Under the pieces are notes generated by a model. The model was not told the origin of the DNA and ran no database searches. It saw only the letters and a list, made by a program, of their open reading frames with translations. From Anaerolineae bacterium (GTDB lineage: Bacteria > Chloroflexota > Anaerolineae > Anaerolineales > UBA11858), in assembly GCA_014382605.1 (NCBI GenBank), contig JACNJM010000159.1, forward strand, positions 1 to 50,747: a stretch of DNA of 50,747 bases, given 5' to 3'. Shown piece after piece: positions 5,232-47,604 of this stretch. The stretch's first letter is position 1; each line of letters opens with the position of its first letter. A program made the translations under genes and the position numbers.

Positions 5232-7130
5232 TCATTCTGTGCGTACAAAAATATGAATGGGAGAATTTGCACGGCAGGGAATCATCGGCGGCGTGGGTGA
5301 AGTTTCATCAAAGGCTCCGCTTTCCGCGAAACTTGTTGCGAAGCCACCATATTGCCGCGCTTCAATCAGGATCACATCGGCTTCTTGGAGCCACTTTTCA
5401 GCCAATTCCTCGTTCCACCAGCCGAAACGTTCCAACTCGTCGGCATCGCCGGACAAGCGGTAAGAATAACCATCGTTGATCTGCGCGGGGTAAATCTGCG
5501 CCTCGGGGATATAGAGCAGCGGCACTGCCGATAACCCGCCCCACCAATAAACTTTTGCACCCGCAGGCACAACTTCGGCCAAACGCGCTCCGCCTGCTTC
5601 ATAGGAAGCAATCACATCACCACCACAGTCGCGATCATAGGGTGTCAGGCCAACCAACAGGGTTATCAGCGTGCCTACAAGCAAAAGCGCGGTCAAACGC
5701 GCTACAACCGGAGAGATCGTTTCCCCCTGGAACAACCCCCGACCCAGTTTCTCGCCAAAGCGCCAAATCAGCCATCCAGCCAGCAATCCCAAGCTGACAA
5801 ACCCGACTATGCGCAACATATCAATCGCGTATTCCACCACCTGTGTTTCGCTGATGGCAAATTTATTGGCAAAATAGCCCCATAATTCGGTCGTCCCGGT
5901 CTGGATGCGGAAGGATTTGATACGCGGCACATCCACTTGCATGAGCCGGTAAACAAAACGATTCGAGATCAATTTGCTGCCAAAAATAGGGATCAGCCCG
6001 AAGCTGATCCCTGCCGAGAGGCAAAAGATCAATCCCGCGGGGAGCCAGCGCATCCGTGCGCCGCGCCACGAAGATGCGGCCACAATCACCAGCAATACGC
6101 CCAAGATGGCAAAAAACGATATATAGGCATCCAGGCAGTAGACGCAGTAATTTTTGCCCAACGAAGCCCAAGCATGGAAGGCCCATAAGAGCATAAACAG
6201 CGCCACAAGGAAGGTCGCCGCCCGCATTCGCCATGCCGATTTCCACTGGCTCTTGCGCGGCCACAAGATCAAAGTAGTCAATGCGCCCACAGTAGAAAAA
6301 TAGTGCAGGCGTATGGCCTGGAAGAAACTCAAAATGCGATCGCTAAAACTCGTCTCAGGTTGCCAGTTGGGAATCGCCGCGGGGCGCGCCCACGGTTCGA
6401 GAAACGGGAACAACCCCACAGGCAACCAAGAGGCCCACATGTGTAGAATCTCCGGCCAGAAGAAAGCGTGTCCACCCACAAAAGTCAGCATCCCGACGGC
6501 AAAACTCCACAGACCAACCCGCCAGCCGTTTTCCCATAGAATATAGAGAATTAACAGGGGTAACAGCGGAGCCATATTGATGCGTGTCAGCACCACCAAC
6601 ACAGCTAATGCGGTCCCCAGAAGCAATTGCCACAAACGGCGCTGATTGCCCAGGGTCAACACCAGCACCCAGACGAGCATACAGGCCACCAGACCTTGCG
6701 AAGCCATCACACTATAAACTTTAATCAACTGCACGTTGAACGCAAATAACCCCACTGCTCCTGCCGCCCACCAGCGCCCGCCAATGCGCCGCGCCAACCA
6801 CCAGATGCCCAGCAGCATTAGCAGGCCAAGAAAAACGGCAAAATAACGCCCGGTGCGCAGGCCAGGGCCAAAGATGCGCTGCACGATTCCCGGAATGAGG
6901 AACGAAAACGGCATGTGGTTGGTCCAAAAGCCATAATCCTGATAAGGCGTATAGCGTCCGATGGCAAAGAAATAGCCTTTGAGCAAATACGCGCCTTCAT
7001 CGAGAATCGATGTCTGCGTATGGGCATAAACCCAAATTTGCAGCGCAAAAAGCGCGGCTCCCAACCCTGCCAGCGTTTCAGCCAGCCAGGGGCTGGATAC
7101 CAAACGCTTCCATCGCACCGATGGGTTCAT
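5232..7130 (-). CDS. GT-C fold membrane glycosyltransferase (GT39/ArnT/PMT-like) with C-terminal extracytoplasmic domain
   Basis: More than 10 predicted TM segments, with an early-loop 'LDEGAYLLKG' (a DE motif as in PMT/ArnT). The ATG at 7130 lies 1 nt after the gmd stop codon; the longer track start overlaps gmd. Confidence 0.65.
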   Translation of the reverse strand: MNPSVRWKRLVSSPWLAETLAGLGAALFALQIWVYAHTQTSILDEGAYLLKGYFFAIGRYTPYQDYGFWTNHMPFSFLIPGIVQRIFGPGLRTGRYFAVFLGLLMLLGIWWLARRIGGRWWAAGAVGLFAFNVQLIKVYSVMASQGLVACMLVWVLVLTLGNQRRLWQLLLGTALAVLVVLTRINMAPLLPLLILYILWENGWRVGLWSFAVGMLTFVGGHAFFWPEILHMWASWLPVGLFPFLEPWARPAAIPNWQPETSFSDRILSFFQAIRLHYFSTVGALTTLILWPRKSQWKSAWRMRAATFLVALFMLLWAFHAWASLGKNYCVYCLDAYISFFAILGVLLVIVAASSWRGARMRWLPAGLIFCLSAGISFGLIPIFGSKLISNRFVYRLMQVDVPRIKSFRIQTGTTELWGYFANKFAISETQVVEYAIDMLRIVGFVSLGLLAGWLIWRFGEKLGRGLFQGETISPVVARLTALLLVGTLITLLVGLTPYDRDCGGDVIASYEAGGARLAEVVPAGAKVYWWGGLSAVPLLYIPEAQIYPAQINDGYSYRLSGDADELERFGWWNEELAEKWLQEADVILIEARQYGGFATSFAESGAFDETSPTPPMIPCRANSPIHIFVRTE

Positions 7131-7131
7131 C

Positions 7132-8112
<981 letters not shown>

Positions 8113-14935: not shown

Positions 14936-15011
14936 TACCACAAAGACACGAAGGCACGAAGAAAAACATAAAAAATCCTTTGTGTCTTTGTGCCTTTGCG
15001 GTGAAATTTTT
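14936..15011. repeat. Family R full copy
   Basis: ACCACAAAGACACGAAGGCACGAAG-AAAAACATAAAAAATC-CTTTGTGTCTTTGTGCCTTTGCGGTGAAATTTT. Confidence 0.7.
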
Positions 15012-38509: not shown

Positions 38510-38538
38510 ACTATACCCCCAAACGACTTCTCGATCAA
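38510..38538 (-). promoter_or_regulatory. Candidate promoter for add
   Basis: Minus strand reads TTGATC-17 nt-TATAGT. The -35 overlaps the LCP stop codon. Confidence 0.4.
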
Positions 38539-39971
38539 GGCAAATTATTTGTGGCAGCCCAATCGTCACCCAGCACCACAACCACATCGACTGCGTTGCC
38601 ATATTCATAATTGAACTGAATGTGGCGCGTGTCCACATCAAATAAACTGGTGAGATATTGCATCGTATAGGGTCGTCCCACATGGTCTACCAAAGTTGTG
38701 TTGGCATAGAGTTCATCCAACTCGCGGGTTTCCACCACCGTTGCACCCTGCGCACGCAAATAATTCGCCGTGCGCAGGGTCAGCCCCGGATCATCACTGC
38801 CATTCCACACTGCAATGGAGGTACCCTCCTGGGCGAGCAAATCCAATGGATCGCCTACGGCCAAAGGTGATAGCGAACCTGATGTGTCAAAAATTTCATC
38901 GCGCAGCACGCGAATGCGATCCGGGTATGGGACAAGAATACTCAAATTATTCGGCGACCAACCAAATGCCACGTAATTAATATCGATCACCCCCTGGCGA
39001 ATATTCTCCCTGGGTACCTGTGCAGCCACCGCGGCCAATCGCAGCACTTCATCCAACTGCATATTGGTTTTTATCCCCGCGGCCAATTCCGTATACAGGG
39101 TGGGCGCTTTGCTAATCAGCATGGGCAGCAATTCAAGATCAAGAATACGGTCACGGATGCCCATAATCACCTGCTGCTGGCGACGGGCGCGGGCAAAATC
39201 GCCATCACCCTGGCTACGGTTGCGCGCATAAGCCAATGCCAACTCGCCTGGCAAAACCTGCACACCGGGCTGCAGGTAACGCGTATTATCATCGCCCAGC
39301 GGATCAATTTTGATGCGCTCCGGGATATCCAGCTTAACGCCGCCGAGTTCGTCGATAAAACGGATAAAGGCATCGAAGTCGACCACCGCATAGTAGTGGA
39401 TCGGCACCCCGATGACCAGTTCCACGGTTTGCACGGACAAGCCGGGGCCACCATAAGCGTGGGCTGTGTTGATTTTGGCGTGTCCAACCCCGGGGATGGC
39501 CGCCCAAAGATCGCGCGGAATCGAAAGTACGCCTGCTGTCTTGGCGACGGGATCCATCGTCAGGAGGATCATGGTATCCGAGCGGGAGGGACCAACCTCA
39601 TTGGCCCAATCGCGATAGTCGAGGCCCATCAATAAAATCGTGACGCGCTCGGTGCCATTCCACGGAACAAGGGTCGGCGTAATTTCAAGGATTTGGCTGG
39701 GTAAGGGTAGCGGCGTAGGGCGGTCAGGTGTAGTAGCAGCGGGCGCTTGCGTTTCGATAACATCGGTGGAGAGAACAGGCTCAAAACGAGGCAGTGTAGG
39801 GATCGCAGTGCGATAATTCTGTGTGTAGCTAATTTCGCGGCTCACCAAATAGGTTACAAAACCAGTCACGAACATCAACACAATTAACGCCATAGTCCAG
39901 GCCACCCAGGAGAGGCAGGCAGAGCGAGATTTAGCAGGTGGCTGTTGGTGCAATTTCGGCATTCGATTCAC
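38535..39971 (-). CDS. LytR-CpsA-Psr (LCP) family glycopolymer ligase, membrane anchored
   Basis: N-terminal TM, 'ILLMGLDYRD...RSDTMILLTMDP', and a C-terminal LytR_C-like region. Start is GTG 39971 or ATG 39962. Confidence 0.85.
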   Translation of the reverse strand: MNRMPKLHQQPPAKSRSACLSWVAWTMALIVLMFVTGFVTYLVSREISYTQNYRTAIPTLPRFEPVLSTDVIETQAPAATTPDRPTPLPLPSQILEITPTLVPWNGTERVTILLMGLDYRDWANEVGPSRSDTMILLTMDPVAKTAGVLSIPRDLWAAIPGVGHAKINTAHAYGGPGLSVQTVELVIGVPIHYYAVVDFDAFIRFIDELGGVKLDIPERIKIDPLGDDNTRYLQPGVQVLPGELALAYARNRSQGDGDFARARRQQQVIMGIRDRILDLELLPMLISKAPTLYTELAAGIKTNMQLDEVLRLAAVAAQVPRENIRQGVIDINYVAFGWSPNNLSILVPYPDRIRVLRDEIFDTSGSLSPLAVGDPLDLLAQEGTSIAVWNGSDDPGLTLRTANYLRAQGATVVETRELDELYANTTLVDHVGRPYTMQYLTSLFDVDTRHIQFNYEYGNAVDVVVVLGDDWAATNNLP

Positions 39972-40007
39972 TTCAATACCCTAACCTGGACAAGCCAGAA
40001 CCAAAAA

Positions 40008-40043
40008 GGTTTCACCACGAAGGCACAAAGAGCGCAAAGTGCC
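40008..40043. repeat. Family R half copy (left-arm type)
   Basis: GGTTTCACCACGAAGGCACAAAGAGCGCAAAGTGCC. Confidence 0.45.
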
Positions 40044-40046
40044 TGA

Positions 40047-41339
40047 TCAGGGAGTAGCGCTTGGCGGCGGAACCGTCGTCAGGGTTGGGGGTGGAATAGT
40101 CGTCAACGTTGGCGGCGGGGCTGTGGTTAGCGTTGGCGGTGGAACCGTCGTCAGCGTTGGGGGTGGCACTGTGGTCAGCGTCGGCGGCGGAACCGTCGTC
40201 AGGGTTGGCGGCGGGACGGTCGTCAATGTTGGTGGGGGCACAGTGGTCAGGGTTGGGGCTACTGTTGTTGCAGTCGGCATACCGGATACTGTCGCCGATG
40301 GCCCTGGCAGAGGAGTCAGTGTGACCGTATTCGTCAATGTAATCGAAGGTATCAGAGTCATGGTCTGTGTGGGCGGCGAACAGATATTCGCTACATGCGT
40401 CAATGTCAGCGGTAACTCTTCATCAGCGCCGCCAAATTGCAACGCCAATTCGTACTGTTTCTGGGCTTCGCACCAGCGTCGCTCGGCGGCTAGTTCTGCG
40501 CCATAGTGCAACAGCGACATGCGGTAACGCCACCCGGCGCTGGAGCCGGTTCCATCGCGCAAACCGGGCACAGAGGCGGCGACCTGCCCAAAATAATAAA
40601 CCGCTTGTTCTGGATACGCTTGCCAAAACCCCAAACCGGTTAAATATAATCTGGCCCAGCCGCGGTACACTGTGGCCTGATAATCTAATGGGCCAATTTT
40701 TTCTGCCAGCGAAAGATCATAAAGCCCCCCCTCCAGGTCGCCGAGTTGTAAAATGCGCTGCTCGCCGCGATTGCGCAGCGCAGCAAAAAGGCTGTCATCC
40801 ACTTCAACAACGCGATAGGTCAGATCTTCGTTGCGCAGGGCAATCAATGCCGCTACGGCGCCATCCCAGTCGCCAGCCGCCAGCAGGGATTGGGCGCGCT
40901 GGAAGATGGATTCAACCCCGCTGGGGTCGCGCGTGGGTGTGAGGGTGATCGTAGGGCTTGGCGCCAGCGTAGGCGGGAATTGCGTAAGTGTGGGGGTTGC
41001 GGTGGTATTCAAAATTTGCAATATTTCGCTGAGATACTCCCAGGCATCTGGATAATCTTCGGGGGCAAAGGCCACCACATATTCCAAACGCTGACGCGCC
41101 GATTCATAACTTCCGGCCTGGTAATCTTCCAACCCTAATTGATATTGCTCGTCAATTACCTCCGCATTCGGCGCAATGACCTCGTTGGCGGCCAATACCG
41201 CCCCGTGCTGATACCCCGCCCAAGCGCCAATAAAACCGATCAATATCAGCAAAACAAGCGCCAACCCTGCCAGCAGAATCTTGTTCGCGGCAGATTTTGG
41301 CGCTTGTCGGGATGTCTTACGTGTTGAGGGAGTGGACAT
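40047..41339 (-). CDS. Membrane-anchored TPR-like protein with C-terminal (PTLTTVPP)x8 repeat tail
   Basis: N-terminal TM 'ILLAGLALVLLILIGFIGAWAG', a helical-repeat middle region, and eight tandem 8-aa repeats at the extreme C-terminus. Confidence 0.6.
   Translation of the reverse strand: MSTPSTRKTSRQAPKSAANKILLAGLALVLLILIGFIGAWAGYQHGAVLAANEVIAPNAEVIDEQYQLGLEDYQAGSYESARQRLEYVVAFAPEDYPDAWEYLSEILQILNTTATPTLTQFPPTLAPSPTITLTPTRDPSGVESIFQRAQSLLAAGDWDGAVAALIALRNEDLTYRVVEVDDSLFAALRNRGEQRILQLGDLEGGLYDLSLAEKIGPLDYQATVYRGWARLYLTGLGFWQAYPEQAVYYFGQVAASVPGLRDGTGSSAGWRYRMSLLHYGAELAAERRWCEAQKQYELALQFGGADEELPLTLTHVANICSPPTQTMTLIPSITLTNTVTLTPLPGPSATVSGMPTATTVAPTLTTVPPPTLTTVPPPTLTTVPPPTLTTVPPPTLTTVPPPTLTTAPPPTLTTIPPPTLTTVPPPSATP
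40063..40254 (-). repeat. Eight tandem 24-bp coding repeats (TLTTVPPP units)
   Basis: Units start at 40063, 40087, 40111, 40135, 40159, 40183, 40207 and 40231. Units 1 and 6 are identical; the others differ mostly at synonymous positions. Confidence 0.9.
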
Positions 41340-41374: not shown

Positions 41375-41935
41375 TCACATTTTGCGAAATAAGTAAGTCA
41401 CGCCGCCAAGCAGCGCATAAAGCAAACCCAACAGCACCAACGCGAATTTGGGCACGGCGCACGCAGCGGCGATCAAAGCCCAGGGCTGGGCAGGCGCCAC
41501 GAAGAGCATCACCAACAGGGAAATATTCTCTACTACATCCAGCAGGCCAGCCAGAATCAATCCCCAGGCCAACCAGCGACCCAGGGCGGCGACTTTCACC
41601 ATTTTTTGGGAGAACGTATCGGCCGCCATGATGCAGCCCAGGCCGATGGCCGCCGCATATAGAGGGATAAAGAGAAAATCCAGCCCCTGGATGAACGCGG
41701 CACGCTCGCGGGCGACGGCATCCCAACTGGCTAGGATGCTTTCTACCACTGGGGTGGTTGCCGCCAACTCAAAGGATACAATCCCCGCGGGAGCCGCGTC
41801 GGTCGTTAGCGGGGATCCCGTCAGCATGAAAACCGCTTCAACCAGCAATGTCAGCGCAACCAATACCCAAAATACACGCTGCCGGCGGCTCACTGTGATT
41901 TGTTCAAATGGATGTTGCATAGATTGTGCCTCCAT
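41375..41935 (-). CDS. Small multi-TM membrane protein, unknown function
   Basis: 4-5 hydrophobic segments. The start is uncertain (ATG 41935, ATG 41920 or TTG 41950). Confidence 0.45.
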   Translation of the reverse strand: MEAQSMQHPFEQITVSRRQRVFWVLVALTLLVEAVFMLTGSPLTTDAAPAGIVSFELAATTPVVESILASWDAVARERAAFIQGLDFLFIPLYAAAIGLGCIMAADTFSQKMVKVAALGRWLAWGLILAGLLDVVENISLLVMLFVAPAQPWALIAAACAVPKFALVLLGLLYALLGGVTYLFRKM

Positions 41936-41972: not shown

Positions 41973-42013
41973 AGTTGGCTCTTTGGACACCAACTGACAC
42001 AAAGGAGATTATC

Positions 42014-42226
42014 ATGAAGCGGGTCACAAATTTCTTAATCGGCTTTTTCTTTGGGGCATTGCTCGGTGGCATGATCACTTTGTTGCTGACGCCCTCCTCA
42101 GGCGATGAATTGCGCACACAGCTTCAAGCACGTGCCCAAAGCATTCAGGATGAAGTCAAAACGGCTGCGGCTGCGCGGCGAGCTGAACTCGAAGAACAGC
42201 TCTCTACTCTGCGAAAACCAGCATAA
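42014..42226 (+). CDS. YtxH-domain protein
   Basis: 'FLIGFFFGALLGGMITLLLTPSSGDELR', with SD AAGGAG upstream. Confidence 0.7.
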   Translation: MKRVTNFLIGFFFGALLGGMITLLLTPSSGDELRTQLQARAQSIQDEVKTAAAARRAELEEQLSTLRKPA

Positions 42227-42282: not shown

Positions 42283-44361
42283 TTAGCGTGTCAGTTCAAA
42301 GCGATAGGCTGCCCGTTGGCGTGTGTGGCGGGTTGTTCCTGAAACCACAAAGATAACTTCATCCACATCGCCGCCAATTTCGACCGGAATTTCTACGGCG
42401 TTATCTGTCCCCAGTGGAATCATCTCAACCTGAGTCGTATCGCCAACCGTAATCAGCGCCAGCCGGAATGTTTGGGGAAGTTCGTTGCGAATACGCACAA
42501 ATCCGGCCGCCTCCCAACCACCAGAATCAGCCTCGAGGTCGGTTGAGTAGCCCACTTCGGGGATGGCAATCTCATCGAGCATAAAACCCTCCCCATTCAC
42601 GGCCGCATCGGTCACATATTCAAATCTTAATTGCACCTGCTGACCGGCAAACTGCGAAATATCCACTTCTTCCAAAATCCATTCACCATTCAATCCGGAA
42701 AGCCCGTTGTAGCTCCAGCCATAACTATTGCCGGAGGGGTCTTCCGCCGTGCCAGAAGGGGTTGTTAGAATTTCCCAGTGATTGCCATCCAGCGAAGCTT
42801 CCAGATATACATAATCATAATCGGCCTCGATGTCGTACCAGGTCTGATACATAAGGGTCAGCGGGCCAGTGTGATTGCTAAAATCGAAACTGCGCGTGAG
42901 GGTCATATCCGACTCATCGCCCTTGTTCGACCAGAAAGCATAATCGCCCGAGTATGGGTCGGCAGGCAACACGCCCACCACTACACTGCCTTCAAAATAC
43001 AGATTATACGTCCCGCTGCAAGCAATGCGATAATAATCCACCCCATACTGGCTGACATCGCGCGTCAACACTTCAGAGGGGCAGGTGTGTACGCTCTCTG
43101 TGACCGAGGTTGAAGGCGCGCCGGGATAATTGGCGTAAGTATAACGACCATCGGCCACCTTTTCATCTTGCAAATAGGAAGCCAGCACCCAGTCGGCAAA
43201 AAAATCGTCGGCGCTGATCGGCTCATTTGTGAGTGGATCGCGAATACCCAATTCTTCCAGTACCGCGTCAACGCTCTTCATGCCGTTGTCGGGATGCGCC
43301 ACCAATGCCTGGGTGGCTTCCTCGCCAAAGCGATTGAGGAAATAATCCACAAACAGGAAGCCTGCCCCATAGTGTGGGCCGGTAGCGCTGGAATCGTTGG
43401 GCCAGTCGTTGAGTTGCAGATCGGGGTTGCTGGTGTAGGAGTAATCAAAACCGCCAACATCATAACCATTGATAAAGGCAGCCAACTCTGAAAAACCCTC
43501 ATTCAGCCAGGATGATTCATTACGGTCGCGATACCAGTGGATCATGTGTTGAAATTCGTGCGCCAGCACACCCAGAGTAAAATCGCCCGAAAGGTTCAGG
43601 TTATCGGAGTTGAGCACAAAAGCCTCGTGTGCGTTGGAATATTCATGCGCCAGCGGATGATACTCATCTGCTGAAGAAAAATAGCCCGCCAGGCCCCAGC
43701 CCAAGCCACTGGCATAAATAATATACAAATGCGGGTCATTATCCACGCCGGGACTCCATTCGCTGCCAAAGAATTCACGATTGCGCGGGTAAATCTCTCT
43801 CTCGAAGGTTTCCACCAGCGCTGCAACTTCATCTGCTTCAAAAGTTACCCCATCTTCAATCCAGAAATAGACATGCTCGGTGACATATTGCAAAGTGACA
43901 TCAACCTGAAAACTTTCATTCGTATCCACATTGGTGAGCCACATCACATCTTGTTCGCCGACCTGATACGTTGGAGGAGCAGCCACCGTCAGGGGGACAT
44001 TTTCCTGCCCGCCAAGGCGTTCAGCCAGTTCAAGCATATCGTTGACGGGGACAACTGCTTCTTCCAGCGTTTGCAGGGTTTCGTGTTTCCAATCAGGTGC
44101 AGCGGACTCGGCCTGGGGCTGATTCTGCTCATCGGGCGTGGAATTTGCATCCGGGGTTTGGGCCGCGGGCTGCATAGTCGCCTGCAGGGTGGGGCGCAGC
44201 ACAACCGGGGTGGACGTATCCGGGCCAGTTGACCAATCCACATTCCCATCTTGCTGATATAGTCCAAATACTGCCGCACCGCCAATCACCACCAGACACA
44301 GGCAAGCGCACAACAATAGCACCAATAAAACAACAATAACAATAATCAGGGTTTTATTCAT
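42283..44361 (-). CDS. Membrane-anchored HExxH zinc metallopeptidase (gluzincin-like) with C-terminal beta-rich domain
   Basis: N-terminal TM, plus 'VLAHEFQHMIHWYRDRNESSWLNEGFSE' (HExxH followed by a downstream NEG glutamate). Confidence 0.6.
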   Translation of the reverse strand: MNKTLIIVIVVLLVLLLCACLCLVVIGGAAVFGLYQQDGNVDWSTGPDTSTPVVLRPTLQATMQPAAQTPDANSTPDEQNQPQAESAAPDWKHETLQTLEEAVVPVNDMLELAERLGGQENVPLTVAAPPTYQVGEQDVMWLTNVDTNESFQVDVTLQYVTEHVYFWIEDGVTFEADEVAALVETFEREIYPRNREFFGSEWSPGVDNDPHLYIIYASGLGWGLAGYFSSADEYHPLAHEYSNAHEAFVLNSDNLNLSGDFTLGVLAHEFQHMIHWYRDRNESSWLNEGFSELAAFINGYDVGGFDYSYTSNPDLQLNDWPNDSSATGPHYGAGFLFVDYFLNRFGEEATQALVAHPDNGMKSVDAVLEELGIRDPLTNEPISADDFFADWVLASYLQDEKVADGRYTYANYPGAPSTSVTESVHTCPSEVLTRDVSQYGVDYYRIACSGTYNLYFEGSVVVGVLPADPYSGDYAFWSNKGDESDMTLTRSFDFSNHTGPLTLMYQTWYDIEADYDYVYLEASLDGNHWEILTTPSGTAEDPSGNSYGWSYNGLSGLNGEWILEEVDISQFAGQQVQLRFEYVTDAAVNGEGFMLDEIAIPEVGYSTDLEADSGGWEAAGFVRIRNELPQTFRLALITVGDTTQVEMIPLGTDNAVEIPVEIGGDVDEVIFVVSGTTRHTRQRAAYRFELTR

Positions 44362-44422: not shown

Positions 44423-46063
44423 TTATTCTTCCCGCAGTAACGCCAACGCATACTCATTCTGATAAATAATTCTGTAACCGGGCAATTCATCGGCATAGGC
44501 ATCACCATAGAATCTTTGCCAGGCGCGCATCTGATCGGGATCAACTGCGGTTTCAATCGCATCAGGTTGGGTGAACTCTAACACATAATTCATTTCCAGC
44601 AACAAAATATCGGGTTGTTTCTCATGGATATAGTCATAAGTTGCCAGCTTCCATTTCATCAGCACATCGTAGTTGGGTTTGGGCGGCACGTAGGCGGTCA
44701 GATCACGGTAGATCGCCAAAGGCTCATCGGCAAGCCCCATCTCGGTTAACCGCGCTTCCACTTCGTGGTAGAAAGCAATACTCTCAGACCGCTCTTCACG
44801 GTAAAGAATATCCGTATAAATTTTGGCATCCTGTTGGAGATACAACCCATATTGGATCACTAATAAAAATAAGAGGATAAATACAAAATCGCGAAGACAC
44901 GAAGAACGTAAAGATTTTTTATTTTGTTTTTCTTCGCGTGCTTCGCGCCTTCGCGATGAAATTCTTTCAGGGAAGAGATGCACCAGCCCCGAAGCAAGCG
45001 GGATTGCCATCGGCAAGAAGTATAGCGGGCGCACGGTTGAGCCGCCCACCGCCAAGAAGTAGGGTAGCGAAAAGGCCAGAATCATCACGTTTGTGAAGCG
45101 GAAGCGCGGTGTGCGCATCCCCTGGATCAGCCCGGCCAGCATCAGCAGCAGCGTAAACCACTGCCCGTAATACGGCCAGATGATGCGTTGTATTTTTTCC
45201 TTTGTGAGATTCCAGTCAGCGTATTGCGTGTAATATCCGGCGCGCGTCTGAAAAATAAGTTGCTGCTGCCGGGCTAGAATTTCTGCCCGGGTTTGAGGAA
45301 TAAGCAGCAACGGATTCGAGATCACCAACCCCAACGCCATCACCGCCACAAAGGAGAAGGCCACCCACAGAGCGCGGCGAAGTTCCAGTTTTTGATCTTT
45401 CAACCCCCAAAGAATATATAGCGGAACCGCCAGTGCAAAAAATGCCCCGGCAAATTTAACGCTCACACCTGCGCCGCACAGAGCCGCAGCAATATAAAAA
45501 TTCCGCCCGAAGCGGAACTCGTCTTTTTGCAGCATATAGAAGATGAGTGTGATCAGCAAAATCGACAGGCTATCGGGATGCCACCAGAGATTATTCAACA
45601 CCGTCGCGGGCAACGCCAACAGAAACGCAAACAGCCCCAGAATTTTCGCAGTGGATTTGCGTTCTGTTTGCAAATCTACCATCAGGGCCACGGAGAAAAT
45701 CACCGGCAGCACGCTGACCAACTGGCGCAACAGCAGCATAATGGTAGCTGAATCTTGCCCCCAGGCTGCCCCTACGAAAAGGCGATAGGGCAGCAGCATG
45801 ATCGCCGAGAACAGATAGAAAGGGTAGCCGTAATCGTAATGTAAATACACCACAAAACGGCGAATCGTCTCAAAAATTGTATCGCCCGGCGTGAGCATCC
45901 GCAAAACATGCTGGTATTGGGCAAACTCATCCTTCTCGAAAATGGAAAGCATATTCCAATCCTGAGCGCCGGTAAAATTGGGGAAGATCATCAGCGAGAA
46001 ATAAATCAGGCCGATGACGAGCATCCCCCAGATGGCAGAACGTGAGAATGTATTTGATTTCAT
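44423..46063 (-). CDS. GT-C fold membrane glycosyltransferase with C-terminal soluble domain; carries an in-frame palindromic-repeat insertion
   Basis: Multi-TM N-terminal 365 aa with the loop 'EKDEFAQY'. Then a repeat-encoded basic loop, one TM, and a soluble domain of about 150 aa. Confidence 0.6.
   Translation of the reverse strand: MKSNTFSRSAIWGMLVIGLIYFSLMIFPNFTGAQDWNMLSIFEKDEFAQYQHVLRMLTPGDTIFETIRRFVVYLHYDYGYPFYLFSAIMLLPYRLFVGAAWGQDSATIMLLLRQLVSVLPVIFSVALMVDLQTERKSTAKILGLFAFLLALPATVLNNLWWHPDSLSILLITLIFYMLQKDEFRFGRNFYIAAALCGAGVSVKFAGAFFALAVPLYILWGLKDQKLELRRALWVAFSFVAVMALGLVISNPLLLIPQTRAEILARQQQLIFQTRAGYYTQYADWNLTKEKIQRIIWPYYGQWFTLLLMLAGLIQGMRTPRFRFTNVMILAFSLPYFLAVGGSTVRPLYFLPMAIPLASGLVHLFPERISSRRREAREEKQNKKSLRSSCLRDFVFILLFLLVIQYGLYLQQDAKIYTDILYREERSESIAFYHEVEARLTEMGLADEPLAIYRDLTAYVPPKPNYDVLMKWKLATYDYIHEKQPDILLLEMNYVLEFTQPDAIETAVDPDQMRAWQRFYGDAYADELPGYRIIYQNEYALALLREE
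44886..44965. repeat. Family R full copy located in-frame inside the GT-C ORF
   Basis: AAATCGCGAAGACACGAAGAACGTAAAG-loop-TCTTCGCGTGCTTCGCGCCTTCGCGATGAAATTC. Confidence 0.7.
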
Positions 46064-46094: not shown

Positions 46095-46167
46095 CCACTG
46101 AGAACGCCGAATTCGCGGAGAAAAACTAAGAAAACTTTGCATTCTCCGCGTACTCTGCGGTTTCAGG
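46095..46167. repeat. Family R variant; the right arm forms the last codons and stop of the O-antigen-ligase-like ORF
   Basis: ...CGCGGAGAA-loop-TTCTCCGCG... (9-bp perfect inner stem), ending GCGGTTTCAGG. Confidence 0.45.
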
Positions 46168-47604
46168 ATTCAGCCCAGTTCCAGGGGCGTATACCTGCAC
46201 GCTGGCGGTAATCAGACCGAAAACAACCCACATATTGGGGATAGCAAACGAATCGACTGAAAATCCCACGCCCAGAAAAACGACCAGCGAGAGCAGCCCG
46301 GCCAAGCCCCAGTAACGCGGCTCACGCTCTGGCGATAGCAAAAGATATAGCGTCGCACCCAGCACCGCCACCACAAAAGCCACAAACGCTGCCGAGCCAA
46401 TCAGGCCGGTCTCGGCGAGAATGCGGGCGAACATATTCTTGGGCACCACCAAACGATTACGTCCTTCGGCAGGAGTAAATTTATATACCAATTCCGGGGT
46501 GGGATAAAGCGGGCGATCCGTAAGCGTCTCTTCAAAGTAAAACGTGTAATTACCCAGGCCAATCCCCGTCCAAGGATAATCTTCATAGATGCGGTAAGCG
46601 GTCTCCCAATAGGCTATGCGCTGGCTAACCGCAATATATTGCACATACGAGCCAGTGGCGTTTTCATCGGTCCAATAACTCCAAAGGCGAGAGAAATAGC
46701 GATTACGCGAGCCAAAGGCAAACACTACCGCCAGCAAGACAGCCAGCATCAACCCTACTTGCAACAAACGCCGCGTAATGCCGCGCCAGTTCAGGCTGCG
46801 ACCGGGTTTTCGTCCGCCGCGAAACAAGAAGGCCAGTACTAATTGCAATCCCCACAGCACATAACCGGTACGCGAATAGGTATACACCAGCACAAATGAA
46901 GCCCAGACCAGCAACAACAATTCCACGGTCACAAAGCGCCAACGGCGACGAAAGGCCGAATAGCCCGACATAACAGCGGCAAACAGCCAGGGCATCAGTA
47001 AAAAAGTGATCTGCTCGGCGAACCAGTTGGGTTCATAGGTCATACCAGAGATGCGCGTCTCGAACAGGCCGCGCACCGAGAAGAAGCCCTGCAAATATTC
47101 GATCAGGTCAAAATATTCGGGCGTGTAAAACAGAATATAGCCAATTTGCACACAGCCCCACAGCAAGGCGATGCCAAATCCGGCGTACAACCAGCGCAGG
47201 GCAAAACGCAGTTCTTCAACGGTGCGCGGGATGACGGCCACGGTGATATAAAAAGCTGCGCCCAATAACAGCGTAGCAGTCATACGCACGGCCCGCGAGG
47301 ACACACTGATGCCGATATCCGGATCAATGCCGCGGGTACAGGCCAGGGCAGTACTCGCCAGCGCAACCAGCACAAAAGCCCCCAGCGGCAAAGCCGTGCG
47401 CGGCGTGGAATGCGTGAACAACCGTGGCAGAGTGTAAATCAATAGAAGGACAATTAATGGATAAATAGATAGTGGTCGCACTTCGGTGCGACCACCGACG
47501 CCACCCGGAAAGTAGGGGAAGCTGGTGACCGGTAAAGTGAGTAGAAACAGCGCCCAAAAGATTTTCTGCACTCGTTCCACTCGCTGAATCCAAACCCGTG
47601 GCAC
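46126..47604 (-). CDS. O-antigen ligase/polymerase family (Wzy_C domain) membrane protein
   Basis: About 12 TM segments, with 'YTYSRTGYVLWG' in the Wzy_C-type region. The GTG start overlaps the upstream stop (TAGTG). Confidence 0.7.
   Translation of the reverse strand: MPRVWIQRVERVQKIFWALFLLTLPVTSFPYFPGGVGGRTEVRPLSIYPLIVLLLIYTLPRLFTHSTPRTALPLGAFVLVALASTALACTRGIDPDIGISVSSRAVRMTATLLLGAAFYITVAVIPRTVEELRFALRWLYAGFGIALLWGCVQIGYILFYTPEYFDLIEYLQGFFSVRGLFETRISGMTYEPNWFAEQITFLLMPWLFAAVMSGYSAFRRRWRFVTVELLLLVWASFVLVYTYSRTGYVLWGLQLVLAFLFRGGRKPGRSLNWRGITRRLLQVGLMLAVLLAVVFAFGSRNRYFSRLWSYWTDENATGSYVQYIAVSQRIAYWETAYRIYEDYPWTGIGLGNYTFYFEETLTDRPLYPTPELVYKFTPAEGRNRLVVPKNMFARILAETGLIGSAAFVAFVVAVLGATLYLLLSPEREPRYWGLAGLLSLVVFLGVGFSVDSFAIPNMWVVFGLITASVQVYAPGTGLNPETAEYAENAKFS

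Follow-up and report, generated by a model that had tools for sequence, protein, structure and literature searches.

A tandem repeat of exact 24-nt units closes one reading frame of an uncultured Anaerolineales bacterium (Chloroflexota), in a stretch of 50,747 nt that is called the window below. The units keep their peptide while their codons diverge. This raises the question of what the encoded Pro/Thr-rich tail is, what maintains it, and whether it forms an O-glycosylated stalk, as the original prediction proposed. Eight 24-nt units coding for PTLTT(V/A/I)PP were confirmed at the C-terminus of the protein, at window positions 40065-40256 on the minus strand (TRF: period 24, 8.3 copies, no indels); the interval first given for them, 40063-40254, covers the same array and lies 2 nt off the codon register. 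On the minus strand, the order is PTLTTVPP five times, PTLTTAPP, PTLTTIPP and PTLTTVPP; the frame then ends with PSATP and its stop codon (40047-40064, minus strand). The sole identical pair is formed by units 3 and 8 in gene order (6 and 1 on the plus strand), as had been noted.

A degenerate leading unit, the ninth, precedes the eight: it reads PTATTVA over 7 codons (40257-40277, minus strand) and is a possible seed of the array. G012 carries SGVPTA at the place of PTATTVA. At the other end, DNA alignment pairs CCAAGCGCTACTCC with CCAAGCGATACGCC of the sister species (G011), and at the sequence level PSATP is recognisable as a remnant of the 7-aa PSDTPxP unit found in that species. The reading frame is backed by homology over the full gene length; a Gly/Val-rich ORF on the plus strand (40039-40506) is a mere shadow of the array. 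An independent assembly (strain L023) contains the same eight units.

The array gene encodes P0001, read from the ORF and its translation as a 430-aa N-anchored TPR-like protein with a P/T tail (40047-41339, minus strand). After a basic N-terminus, residues 20-42 approximately (41214-41282, minus strand) form a single transmembrane helix, within a helix modelled by AF2 at residues 16-53. The positive-inside rule predicts an N-in/C-out topology, which would place the tail outside the cytoplasm. Residues 59-320 (40380-41165, minus strand) form a TPR-like helical repeat domain with AF2 block-mean pLDDT values of 89-98, mostly above 94, in the helices; in the model its 12 helices are paired, in keeping with the stacked helix-turn-helix superhelix of TPR proteins. 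In a Foldseek search of the PDB, the top matches were all TPR proteins, with a probability of 1.0, E-values of 1.5e-4 or worse and low TM-scores. These matches were generic (SPY/OGT TPR, P58IPK, BamD, NlpI, PilF) and point to no specific function. The Pfam TPR_20 profile reached 20.2 bits in P0001, below its curated cut-off of 25; TPR Pfam matches are present in some homologues. A profile search against PDB sequences returned weak TPR matches and 8zvk_A (3e-06), which covered only the low-complexity P/T region and was discarded as compositional rather than homologous.

Two P/T-rich segments depart from this fold. An internal linker of residues 110-140 approximately (TATPTLTQFPPTLAPSPTITLTPTRD; 40920-41012, minus strand) interrupts the TPR-like domain, with pLDDT below 50 for residues 115-130; T113, T115, T136 and D138 are invariant in the family, as are two Cys of the domain, which enter into the predicted extracytoplasmic location together with the basic N-terminus and the single helix. 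The second segment is the C-terminal tail, residues 321-430 (40050-40379, minus strand), which follows the invariant Cys320 and is predicted to be disordered from AF2 and composition. Residues 321-330 still reach a block-mean pLDDT of 85, but from 331 to 430 the values fall to 39-59 and the model has no secondary structure. The tail contains 30% Pro and 34% Thr, and no Lys, Arg, Asp or Glu. As to a sorting signal, P0001 ends in ...PPPSATP, with neither an LPXTG motif nor a hydrophobic C-terminus. AF2 and Foldseek together support the prediction that the array lies at the very C-terminus of a TPR-like protein with an N-terminal anchor.

Variation among the eight units was then compared by codon position. 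All 8 third positions vary, against 3 of the 16 first and second positions, one of these three being a synonymous CTG/TTG change. At minimum, 15 synonymous and 2 non-synonymous changes are needed, both of the latter conservative (binomial P = 8e-6). On average, pS reaches 0.60 and pN only 0.03, so that pN/pS is about 0.05. This unit comparison, which had been asked for with the original prediction, bears out purifying selection on the peptide. The difference at four-fold sites is 0.59 among units, so that most of them are old and not products of recent slippage, also as proposed.

Anti-recombination pressure on the DNA had been invoked as well. Codon scrambling would then be selected, synonymous differences being favoured because they lower slippage or recombination in the array, and this would explain why the units differ more at four-fold sites (0.59) than do the gene bodies of the two species, G000 (this genome) and G011 (0.21, or 21%). 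Between G000 and L023, 2 of 64 four-fold sites changed in the array against 1 of 196 in the body, a contrast that is suggestive only (Fisher P = 0.15). However, the units proved more alike in DNA than random synonymous recodings. Codon sharing between units is 0.39, compared with 0.29 in random draws from genome codon usage (P = 0.014), and the longest exact repeat is 24 nt, compared with 13 ± 3 nt in the recodings (P = 0.002). Repeated 12-mers number 17, compared with 2.8. Moreover, the first Pro codon of the unit is CCA in 7 of 8 cases although CCA is a minor codon (16%), which indicates descent of the units and not dispersal. The excess divergence also has a simpler account, in which the array is older than the split and the sister lineage lost it; G000 still carries one vestigial unit of the sister type. 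Selected scrambling was thus rejected by the test against random recoding, and we regard it as very improbable. The contrast between 0.59 and 0.21 does not fit a simple history in which the array arose after the split and then drifted. Either the sister lineage lost an older array, or synonymous change has been several-fold faster within the array.

Homologues of P0001 number 296, and the named ones come from Anaerolineales/Chloroflexota. A family member was found in 39 of 41 related genomes and, among the genomes sampled, the family is restricted to Anaerolineales. All 116 members parsed carry a tail, with a median length of 113 aa (IQR 93-126) and a composition of 25% Pro and 28% Thr (about 53% Pro+Thr); the median of Lys+Arg is 0. 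At least 12 of the 116 have independent periodic arrays with a period of 7, 8, 10 or 12 aa, and peptide repeats with diverged codons likewise occur in G011, G002 and G005. In G011, where the protein body is 95% identical, eleven PSDTPxx units occupy the same junction; counted from the sequences, the tail is about 111 aa long there and 110 aa here. A strain of this sister species (L024) has 7 PSDTPxx units and differs from G011 by 84 nt, in frame. L023 (99.1% identical to the present strain) keeps all eight units with 2 changes, both synonymous. Orthologues therefore keep the P/T tail, and repeat number varies between strains in frame. The range of 54-243 aa in the family and the 83-aa tail tolerated in L024 show that any constraint on length is loose.

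By eye, no frame-shift or rearrangement was seen that would link the 8-aa unit to the 7-aa unit of the sister species. The double PTLTTxPP unit, searched as a degenerate DNA pattern in 185,579 species genomes and 241 million metagenome records, had no other occurrence. P/T-rich tracts are present in 12 ORFs of the host genome, which thus uses such tracts generally. The array is best explained as a tandem repeat peculiar to this species, within a P/T tail that the family shares.

Such turnover might also be expected of a functionless low-complexity expansion, that is, a slippage product that is tolerated and has no role. The unit sequence does change fast, to the point that the double unit is found in no other record searched, and copy number varies between strains of the sister species. 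Against this stand the pN/pS of 0.05, the presence of the tail in 116 of 116 members with a stable composition and no Lys/Arg, its lack in most paralogues not linked to an LCP gene (see below), and copy-number variation that is in frame only. A tail with no role is, in our estimation, quite unlikely.

Directly downstream of the TPR gene lies a gene for an LCP (LytR-CpsA-Psr) glycopolymer transferase (38535-39971, minus strand; PF03816 3.5e-39, LytR_C, TIGR00350). The adjacency, already pointed out in the original prediction, is conserved in 19 other genomes: the TPR gene is directly upstream of the LCP gene in 13 of 13 other genomes of the genus and in 6 of other genera. The gap measures about 10-80 nt across linked genomes, and about 10 nt in G011. 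Here, the intergenic spacer (39972-40046) contains a piece of about 30 nt (approximately 40010-40040) of a dispersed genome repeat, which recurs in G000 as at least 20 partial copies, including one at 14978-15011 of the window. A hairpin just 3' of the TPR-gene stop was no more stable than shuffled sequences (z = +1.0), so a terminator between the two genes is not supported by it. Given the short gap, they are probably co-transcribed. On the other side, a gene for a conserved 181-aa protein (41375-41920, minus strand), which had no Pfam match, is directly upstream; it is kept there in 11 of 13 other genomes of the genus and was called as a gene in L023 and L024. A membrane-anchored InhA-like metallopeptidase with a MAM domain (42283-44361, minus strand; PF20773 3.1e-31) and a Wzy_C (O-antigen ligase/polymerase-like) membrane protein (46126-47604, minus strand; PF04932 2.5e-13) are encoded further upstream.

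Tail length differs with linkage. In all 8 LCP-linked copies parsed, the tail measures 71-127 aa, compared with 1-26 aa in 7 of 8 unlinked copies, a comparison that is descriptive only because kin genomes are non-independent. The paralogue of the host genome itself stops directly after the second conserved Cys.

The LCP enzyme might act on the tail, transferring a phosphate-linked glycopolymer onto it instead of, or besides, peptidoglycan. The conserved gene pair with its short gap and the near-restriction of long tails to LCP-linked copies would fit such a transfer, and there is a precedent in Actinomyces oris, where lcpA and gspA are adjacent, protein glycosylation depends on the LCP enzyme, and a transfer of this kind by LcpA onto GspA is proposed (PMC6381275). 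There as here, a surface-protein gene adjoins an LCP gene. However, GspA is an LPXTG protein anchored by sortase, whereas P0001 has an N-terminal anchor and lacks a sorting signal. Even in GspA the acceptor sites are not known, and gene adjacency equally fits a scaffold or regulator role. Transfer by the LCP enzyme onto the tail is thus an unlikely event in our view, and it is just as improbable that the Anaerolineales tail is a protein acceptor of either the co-encoded LCP enzyme or the GT-C enzyme of the cluster.

This GT-C enzyme belongs to another part of the original prediction, which placed GT-C enzymes within 5 kb of the array and drew on the GT39 mannosyltransferases of Actinobacteria. 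One divergent PMT_2-like gene was indeed found at that distance; the gene next to it is Wzy_C and not GT-C. The product, P0004 (44423-46063, minus strand), had no Pfam match and no PDB sequence match of its own, and is a putative GT-C-type membrane glycosyltransferase through its homologues at 35-45% identity, which pass the PMT_2, PMT or GT87 cut-offs. Its gene belongs to the strand-run of envelope genes that includes the TPR gene, from which it is 3.1 kb upstream. It is also in the cluster in G008, G010 and G023, and is absent from the otherwise conserved cluster of G021. The Pfam-detectable PMT_2 genes of the window are more than 30 kb from the array. Over the whole host genome, about 15 PMT_2-type matches and 2 YfhO-type genes were counted, so that GT-C enzymes are encoded in it. 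PMT_4TMC (PF16192) had no match in this 92.85%-complete genome, the control matching in Corynebacterium only, and PF02366 (PMT) gave only weak partial matches of about 36 bits. No canonical GT39 was therefore found, and the actinobacterial frame had to be given up for this Anaerolineales host.

An O-glycosylated stalk would need a GT-C enzyme to modify the Thr residues outside the membrane with a polyprenyl-phosphate sugar, and the glycans would stiffen the tail and protect it from proteases. The Thr content of the tail (34%), its disorder and its predicted extracytoplasmic location suit this reading, as do the divergent GT-C gene kept in three other clusters and the PMT_2-type and YfhO-type genes of the genome. 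Precedents exist in GT-C-glycosylated C-terminal tails of streptococci (PMC12041528) and in the Pro-Thr linker of Cellulomonas fimi, which is heavily mannosylated (PMC12757957). However, the failure to find a canonical GT39, the weak PMT matches and the absence of the GT-C gene from the G021 cluster count against it, and the GT-C, Wzy_C and GT4 genes of the cluster are more simply read as glycopolymer synthesis supplying the LCP enzyme. Moreover, our literature search found nothing on P/T tails or protein O-glycosylation in Anaerolineae. We hold the glycosylated stalk as a tentative reading, somewhat doubtful; it is compatible with the plain disordered tail preferred below and adds a modification to it.

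Similar known systems include streptococcal membrane-anchored proteins, LytR among them, in which GT-C enzymes glycosylate Ser/Thr-rich C-terminal disordered regions and so shield them from proteolysis (PMC11092751, the same as PMC12041528). As in PrsA, PBP1a, LytR and PknB (PMC12041528), a disordered tail rich in hydroxy amino acids ends a membrane-anchored protein of envelope biogenesis, predicted here to lie outside the membrane, and GT-C genes are present in the genome. In contrast, the tail of P0001 is Pro/Thr-rich and strictly periodic, belongs to another phylum and is carried by a TPR protein, and its glycosylation is only a candidate; the GtrB/PgtC2 or Pgf pathway, a streptococcal feature, was not identified here. 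The Chloroflexota host is presumably monoderm, like streptococci. Pro-Thr linkers ('PT box') of glycoside hydrolases from C. fimi and other bacteria, O-mannosylated by actinobacterial Pmt (PMC12757957, PMC3490864), share Pro/Thr composition, extended disorder and secreted context with the tail. They join two folded parts, as the internal linker of P0001 (residues 110-140) does, whereas the C-terminal array is a free end; their Pmt-bearing hosts are actinobacteria, unlike the present host, in which a GT39 with PMT_4TMC was not found. Peptide units are also kept while codons vary in the Ser-Asp repeats of staphylococcal Clf/Sdr proteins and the octapeptide Xr region of protein A, which are extended, lie outside the cell and vary in copy number between strains. 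These regions sit between a ligand-binding domain and a C-terminal wall anchor, whereas the tail of P0001 is distal to its anchor and differs in composition.

Altogether, we favour, with a probability of about 0.6 for the explanation as a whole, a disordered extracytoplasmic P/T tail that is common to the family and carried by a TPR protein whose gene is paired with an LCP gene. The tail would be an extension of about 110 residues on an Anaerolineales-restricted protein made of a transmembrane helix and a TPR-like domain. Selection would hold its composition (Pro for stiffness, Thr, and no Lys/Arg) and its approximate length, but not its sequence. Units of 7-12 aa would duplicate near the C-terminus, persist through purifying selection on the peptide while synonymous sites drift, and be replaced between species. 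The tail may thus serve the membrane-anchored TPR scaffold as a spacer or 'bristle', extended and resistant to proteases, and may reach into the region of the wall in which the LCP enzyme is active. It is no wall-spanning segment of the classical type, since it does not run between anchor and domain but lies distal to the anchor. Its many Thr residues may plausibly be O-glycosylated, with odds that we put below even.

Pro/Thr-rich disordered tails and linkers are familiar in exported bacterial proteins, which makes the repeat itself unremarkable. The contribution is modest: an undescribed family restricted to Anaerolineales, which combines a membrane anchor, a TPR-like domain and a P/T tail and whose gene is tightly paired with an LCP gene, the long tail going with this pairing. 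The array also illustrates cleanly, in a natural case, how selection can act on what a disordered tail is composed of and how long it is, even as sister species exchange one repeat unit for another. If the tail were an acceptor, a protein-linked wall glycopolymer would be displayed on a membrane-anchored TPR scaffold; this would reveal a GspA-like route of protein glycosylation in Chloroflexota, where none has been described, and would account for the near-confinement of long tails to LCP-linked copies. Finally, if the tail is glycosylated, it would open a first way into the study of protein glycosylation and envelope assembly in a phylum that is mostly uncultured and has received little attention.

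The TPR-like protein that carries the repeat is encoded by a 430-aa ORF on the minus strand (40047-41339), and its final 69 residues consist of eight 8-residue PTLTT[V/A/I]PP units and a closing PSATP before the stop codon. Tandem Repeats Finder described the array as 8.3 copies of period 24 with 0 indels, super-periods of 48 and 72 nt scoring slightly better. The ORF, this analysis and a codon-by-codon comparison thus agree with the original prediction of an eight-unit repeat; its coordinates captured the array itself, but the codon register was 2 nt out. All third codon positions varied across units, and only three first or second positions did so: CTG/TTG (synonymous), GTT to ATT and GTT to GCC. 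In gene order, units 3 and 8 were identical, with unit 5 two nucleotides away from both. At a minimum, 15 synonymous versus 2 conservative non-synonymous changes are required (binomial P = 8e-6, from 8.3 synonymous and 15.7 non-synonymous sites). Between units, mean pS was 0.60 and mean pN 0.03; this ratio of 0.05 bears out the proposed purifying selection on the peptide. Seven Pro-Pro-Pro triplets were counted in the array (40065-40256); motifs of this kind generally cause ribosome stalling and EF-P dependence. Antisense to it runs a 155-aa Gly/Val-rich ORF (40039-40506, plus strand), which has no homology support and is a shadow of the repeat.

Codon divergence between units had also been ascribed to relaxed or anti-recombination pressure on the DNA. 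However, the units were more alike than expected: codon identity was 0.39 versus 0.29 in random draws from genome codon usage (P = 0.014), the longest exact repeat was 24 nt versus 13 +/- 3 expected (P = 0.002), and 17 12-mers were repeated versus 2.8 expected. Codon scrambling, or selection for DNA dissimilarity, is therefore not supported. The units are not maximally scrambled and carry a signal of common descent and of one or more subsequent duplications or conversions (units 3, 5 and 8).

We measured the tail, defined as the segment past the second conserved Cys, in 116 homologues. Its median length was 113 aa (IQR 93-126), with 25% Pro, 28% Thr and a median Lys+Arg of zero. C-terminal periodic arrays (periods 7, 8, 10 or 12) were present in at least 12 homologues, for example PTATNTDPPP x4 and APAPTETFTS x3, and were also codon-diverged at the DNA level. 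The P/T tail is a family trait; the repeat unit is not. A degenerate-pattern search of 185,579 species genomes and JGI metagenome records for a second carrier of two 8-aa units gave no match. In G000, the genome holding the window, tracts with at least 26 Pro+Thr per 40 residues occurred in 11 further ORFs (contigs C215, C307, C255, C306, C25, C60, C86, C157, C295 and C339). These were mostly non-periodic TPTPTxT-type linkers, the window array being the only near-perfect periodic one.

Comparison of repeat number across strains showed that copy number varies in frame. L023, an independent assembly of a 99.1%-identical strain, has the same eight units with 2 synonymous changes. In the sister species G011, the protein is 95% identical over residues 1-355 and collinear until ...LPGPSAT-SG-P, where eleven 21-nt PSDTP[IVA][LSP] units begin (locus L002, 2562-2792; super-period 42 nt). 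L024, another strain of that species, has seven (6880-7212), an in-frame difference of 84 nt, or exactly four units. The 7-aa unit looks ancestral and the 8-aa array special to G000, because the PSATP ending of G000 shows DNA-level homology to the final G011 unit and another relative, G012, ends in PTATPIP-PTNTPIP-type units. If the array arose after the split from G011 and drifted neutrally, synonymous change in it would have to be at least 4x faster, since 59% of four-fold sites differ between its units versus 21% between the G000 and G011 gene bodies (52% for G000/G012; LCP genes, 0.235 and 0.54, respectively). A simpler alternative is an ancestor with both kinds of unit, each lineage having lost one and expanded the other, which the vestigial 7-aa unit of G000 fits.

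The family was present in 39 of 41 relatives. A phylum-wide sample recovered it in 12/12 other same-order genomes drawn and 1/3 elsewhere in the class; beyond these, only matches at E = 1e-13 were found, confined to two genomes from a single other family. Every homologue that carries a name is a MAG protein from Anaerolineales, Anaerolineae or Chloroflexota, and therefore the actinobacterial frame adopted previously does not apply. An AlphaFold2 model (45-sequence alignment) displayed a long N-terminal helix (residues 16-53), which includes a hydrophobic stretch (20-42) preceded by a basic N-terminus, and 12 helices over residues 59-320, mostly with pLDDT >94. The internal P/T linker (pLDDT <50 at 115-130) and the tail from about residue 325 were disordered. 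Foldseek matched generic TPR superhelices only, and two Cys (290 and 320) are invariant. The predicted topology is N-in/C-out.

The downstream gene encodes an LCP (LytR-CpsA-Psr) transferase (PF03816 at 3.5e-39; TIGR00350), as anticipated, and the TPR-then-LCP order is conserved in 13/13 other genus genomes and 6 genomes of other genera, several of which retain the wider cluster. The intergenic gap is about 10 nt in G011 and 75 nt in G000 (39972-40046), where it contains a piece of about 30 nt (core about 40010-40040) of a dispersed repeat with more than 20 partial genome copies, one at 14978-15011 of the window. The final unit (PSATP*) is curtailed exactly where this insert starts. Tails were 71-127 aa in LCP-linked copies (8/8 parsed) versus 1-26 aa in 7/8 unlinked ones, a descriptive comparison among kin genomes rather than a statistical test. 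The G000 paralogue (C165, 9826-10767; 38% identity) keeps the internal P/T linker, has no LCP neighbour and terminates directly past the second conserved Cys, without a tail.

Upstream on the same strand lie genes for a conserved protein of 181 aa that matches no known family (41375-41920; directly upstream in 11/13 other genus genomes), an InhA-like metallopeptidase and P0004, a 546-aa multi-TM protein (44423-46063), then a Wzy_C protein, a 349-aa ORF and two GT4 glycosyltransferases. A 70-aa YtxH-like gene, annotated in L023 and L024, sits on the opposite strand between the first two (41975-42226). P0004 itself had no match in Pfam or among PDB sequences. Since its homologues at 35-45% identity exceed PMT_2, PMT or GT87 cut-offs, it is predicted to be a divergent GT-C enzyme of a clade missed by current profiles.

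O-glycosylation of the tail is plausible: the tail is Thr-rich, disordered and predicted to be extracytoplasmic, many GT-C genes, one of which belongs to the cluster, are present in the 3.66-Mb assembly (339 contigs, 93% complete; PMT_2, 15 matches; YfhO, 2 genes), and precedents exist in streptococci (PMC12041528) and actinobacteria (PMC12757957). However, the PMT matches are weak, and no PMT_4TMC domain was found in G000, hence no canonical GT39. Moreover, the gene cluster is naturally interpreted as making glycopolymer for the LCP enzyme, and literature searches found nothing for this phylum. Transfer by the LCP enzyme to the protein, for which the A. oris LcpA/GspA pair (PMC6381275) is the model, would be a more novel but less likely route, compatible with the conserved adjacency; the TPR protein, however, lacks the LPXTG feature of GspA.

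Altogether, the repeat is genuine and under selection. It represents an already known kind of feature, a P/T-rich disordered tail of predicted extracytoplasmic location, here in a previously undescribed family of Anaerolineales that is paired with an LCP gene. Its best-supported role is that of a spacer selected for composition and length.
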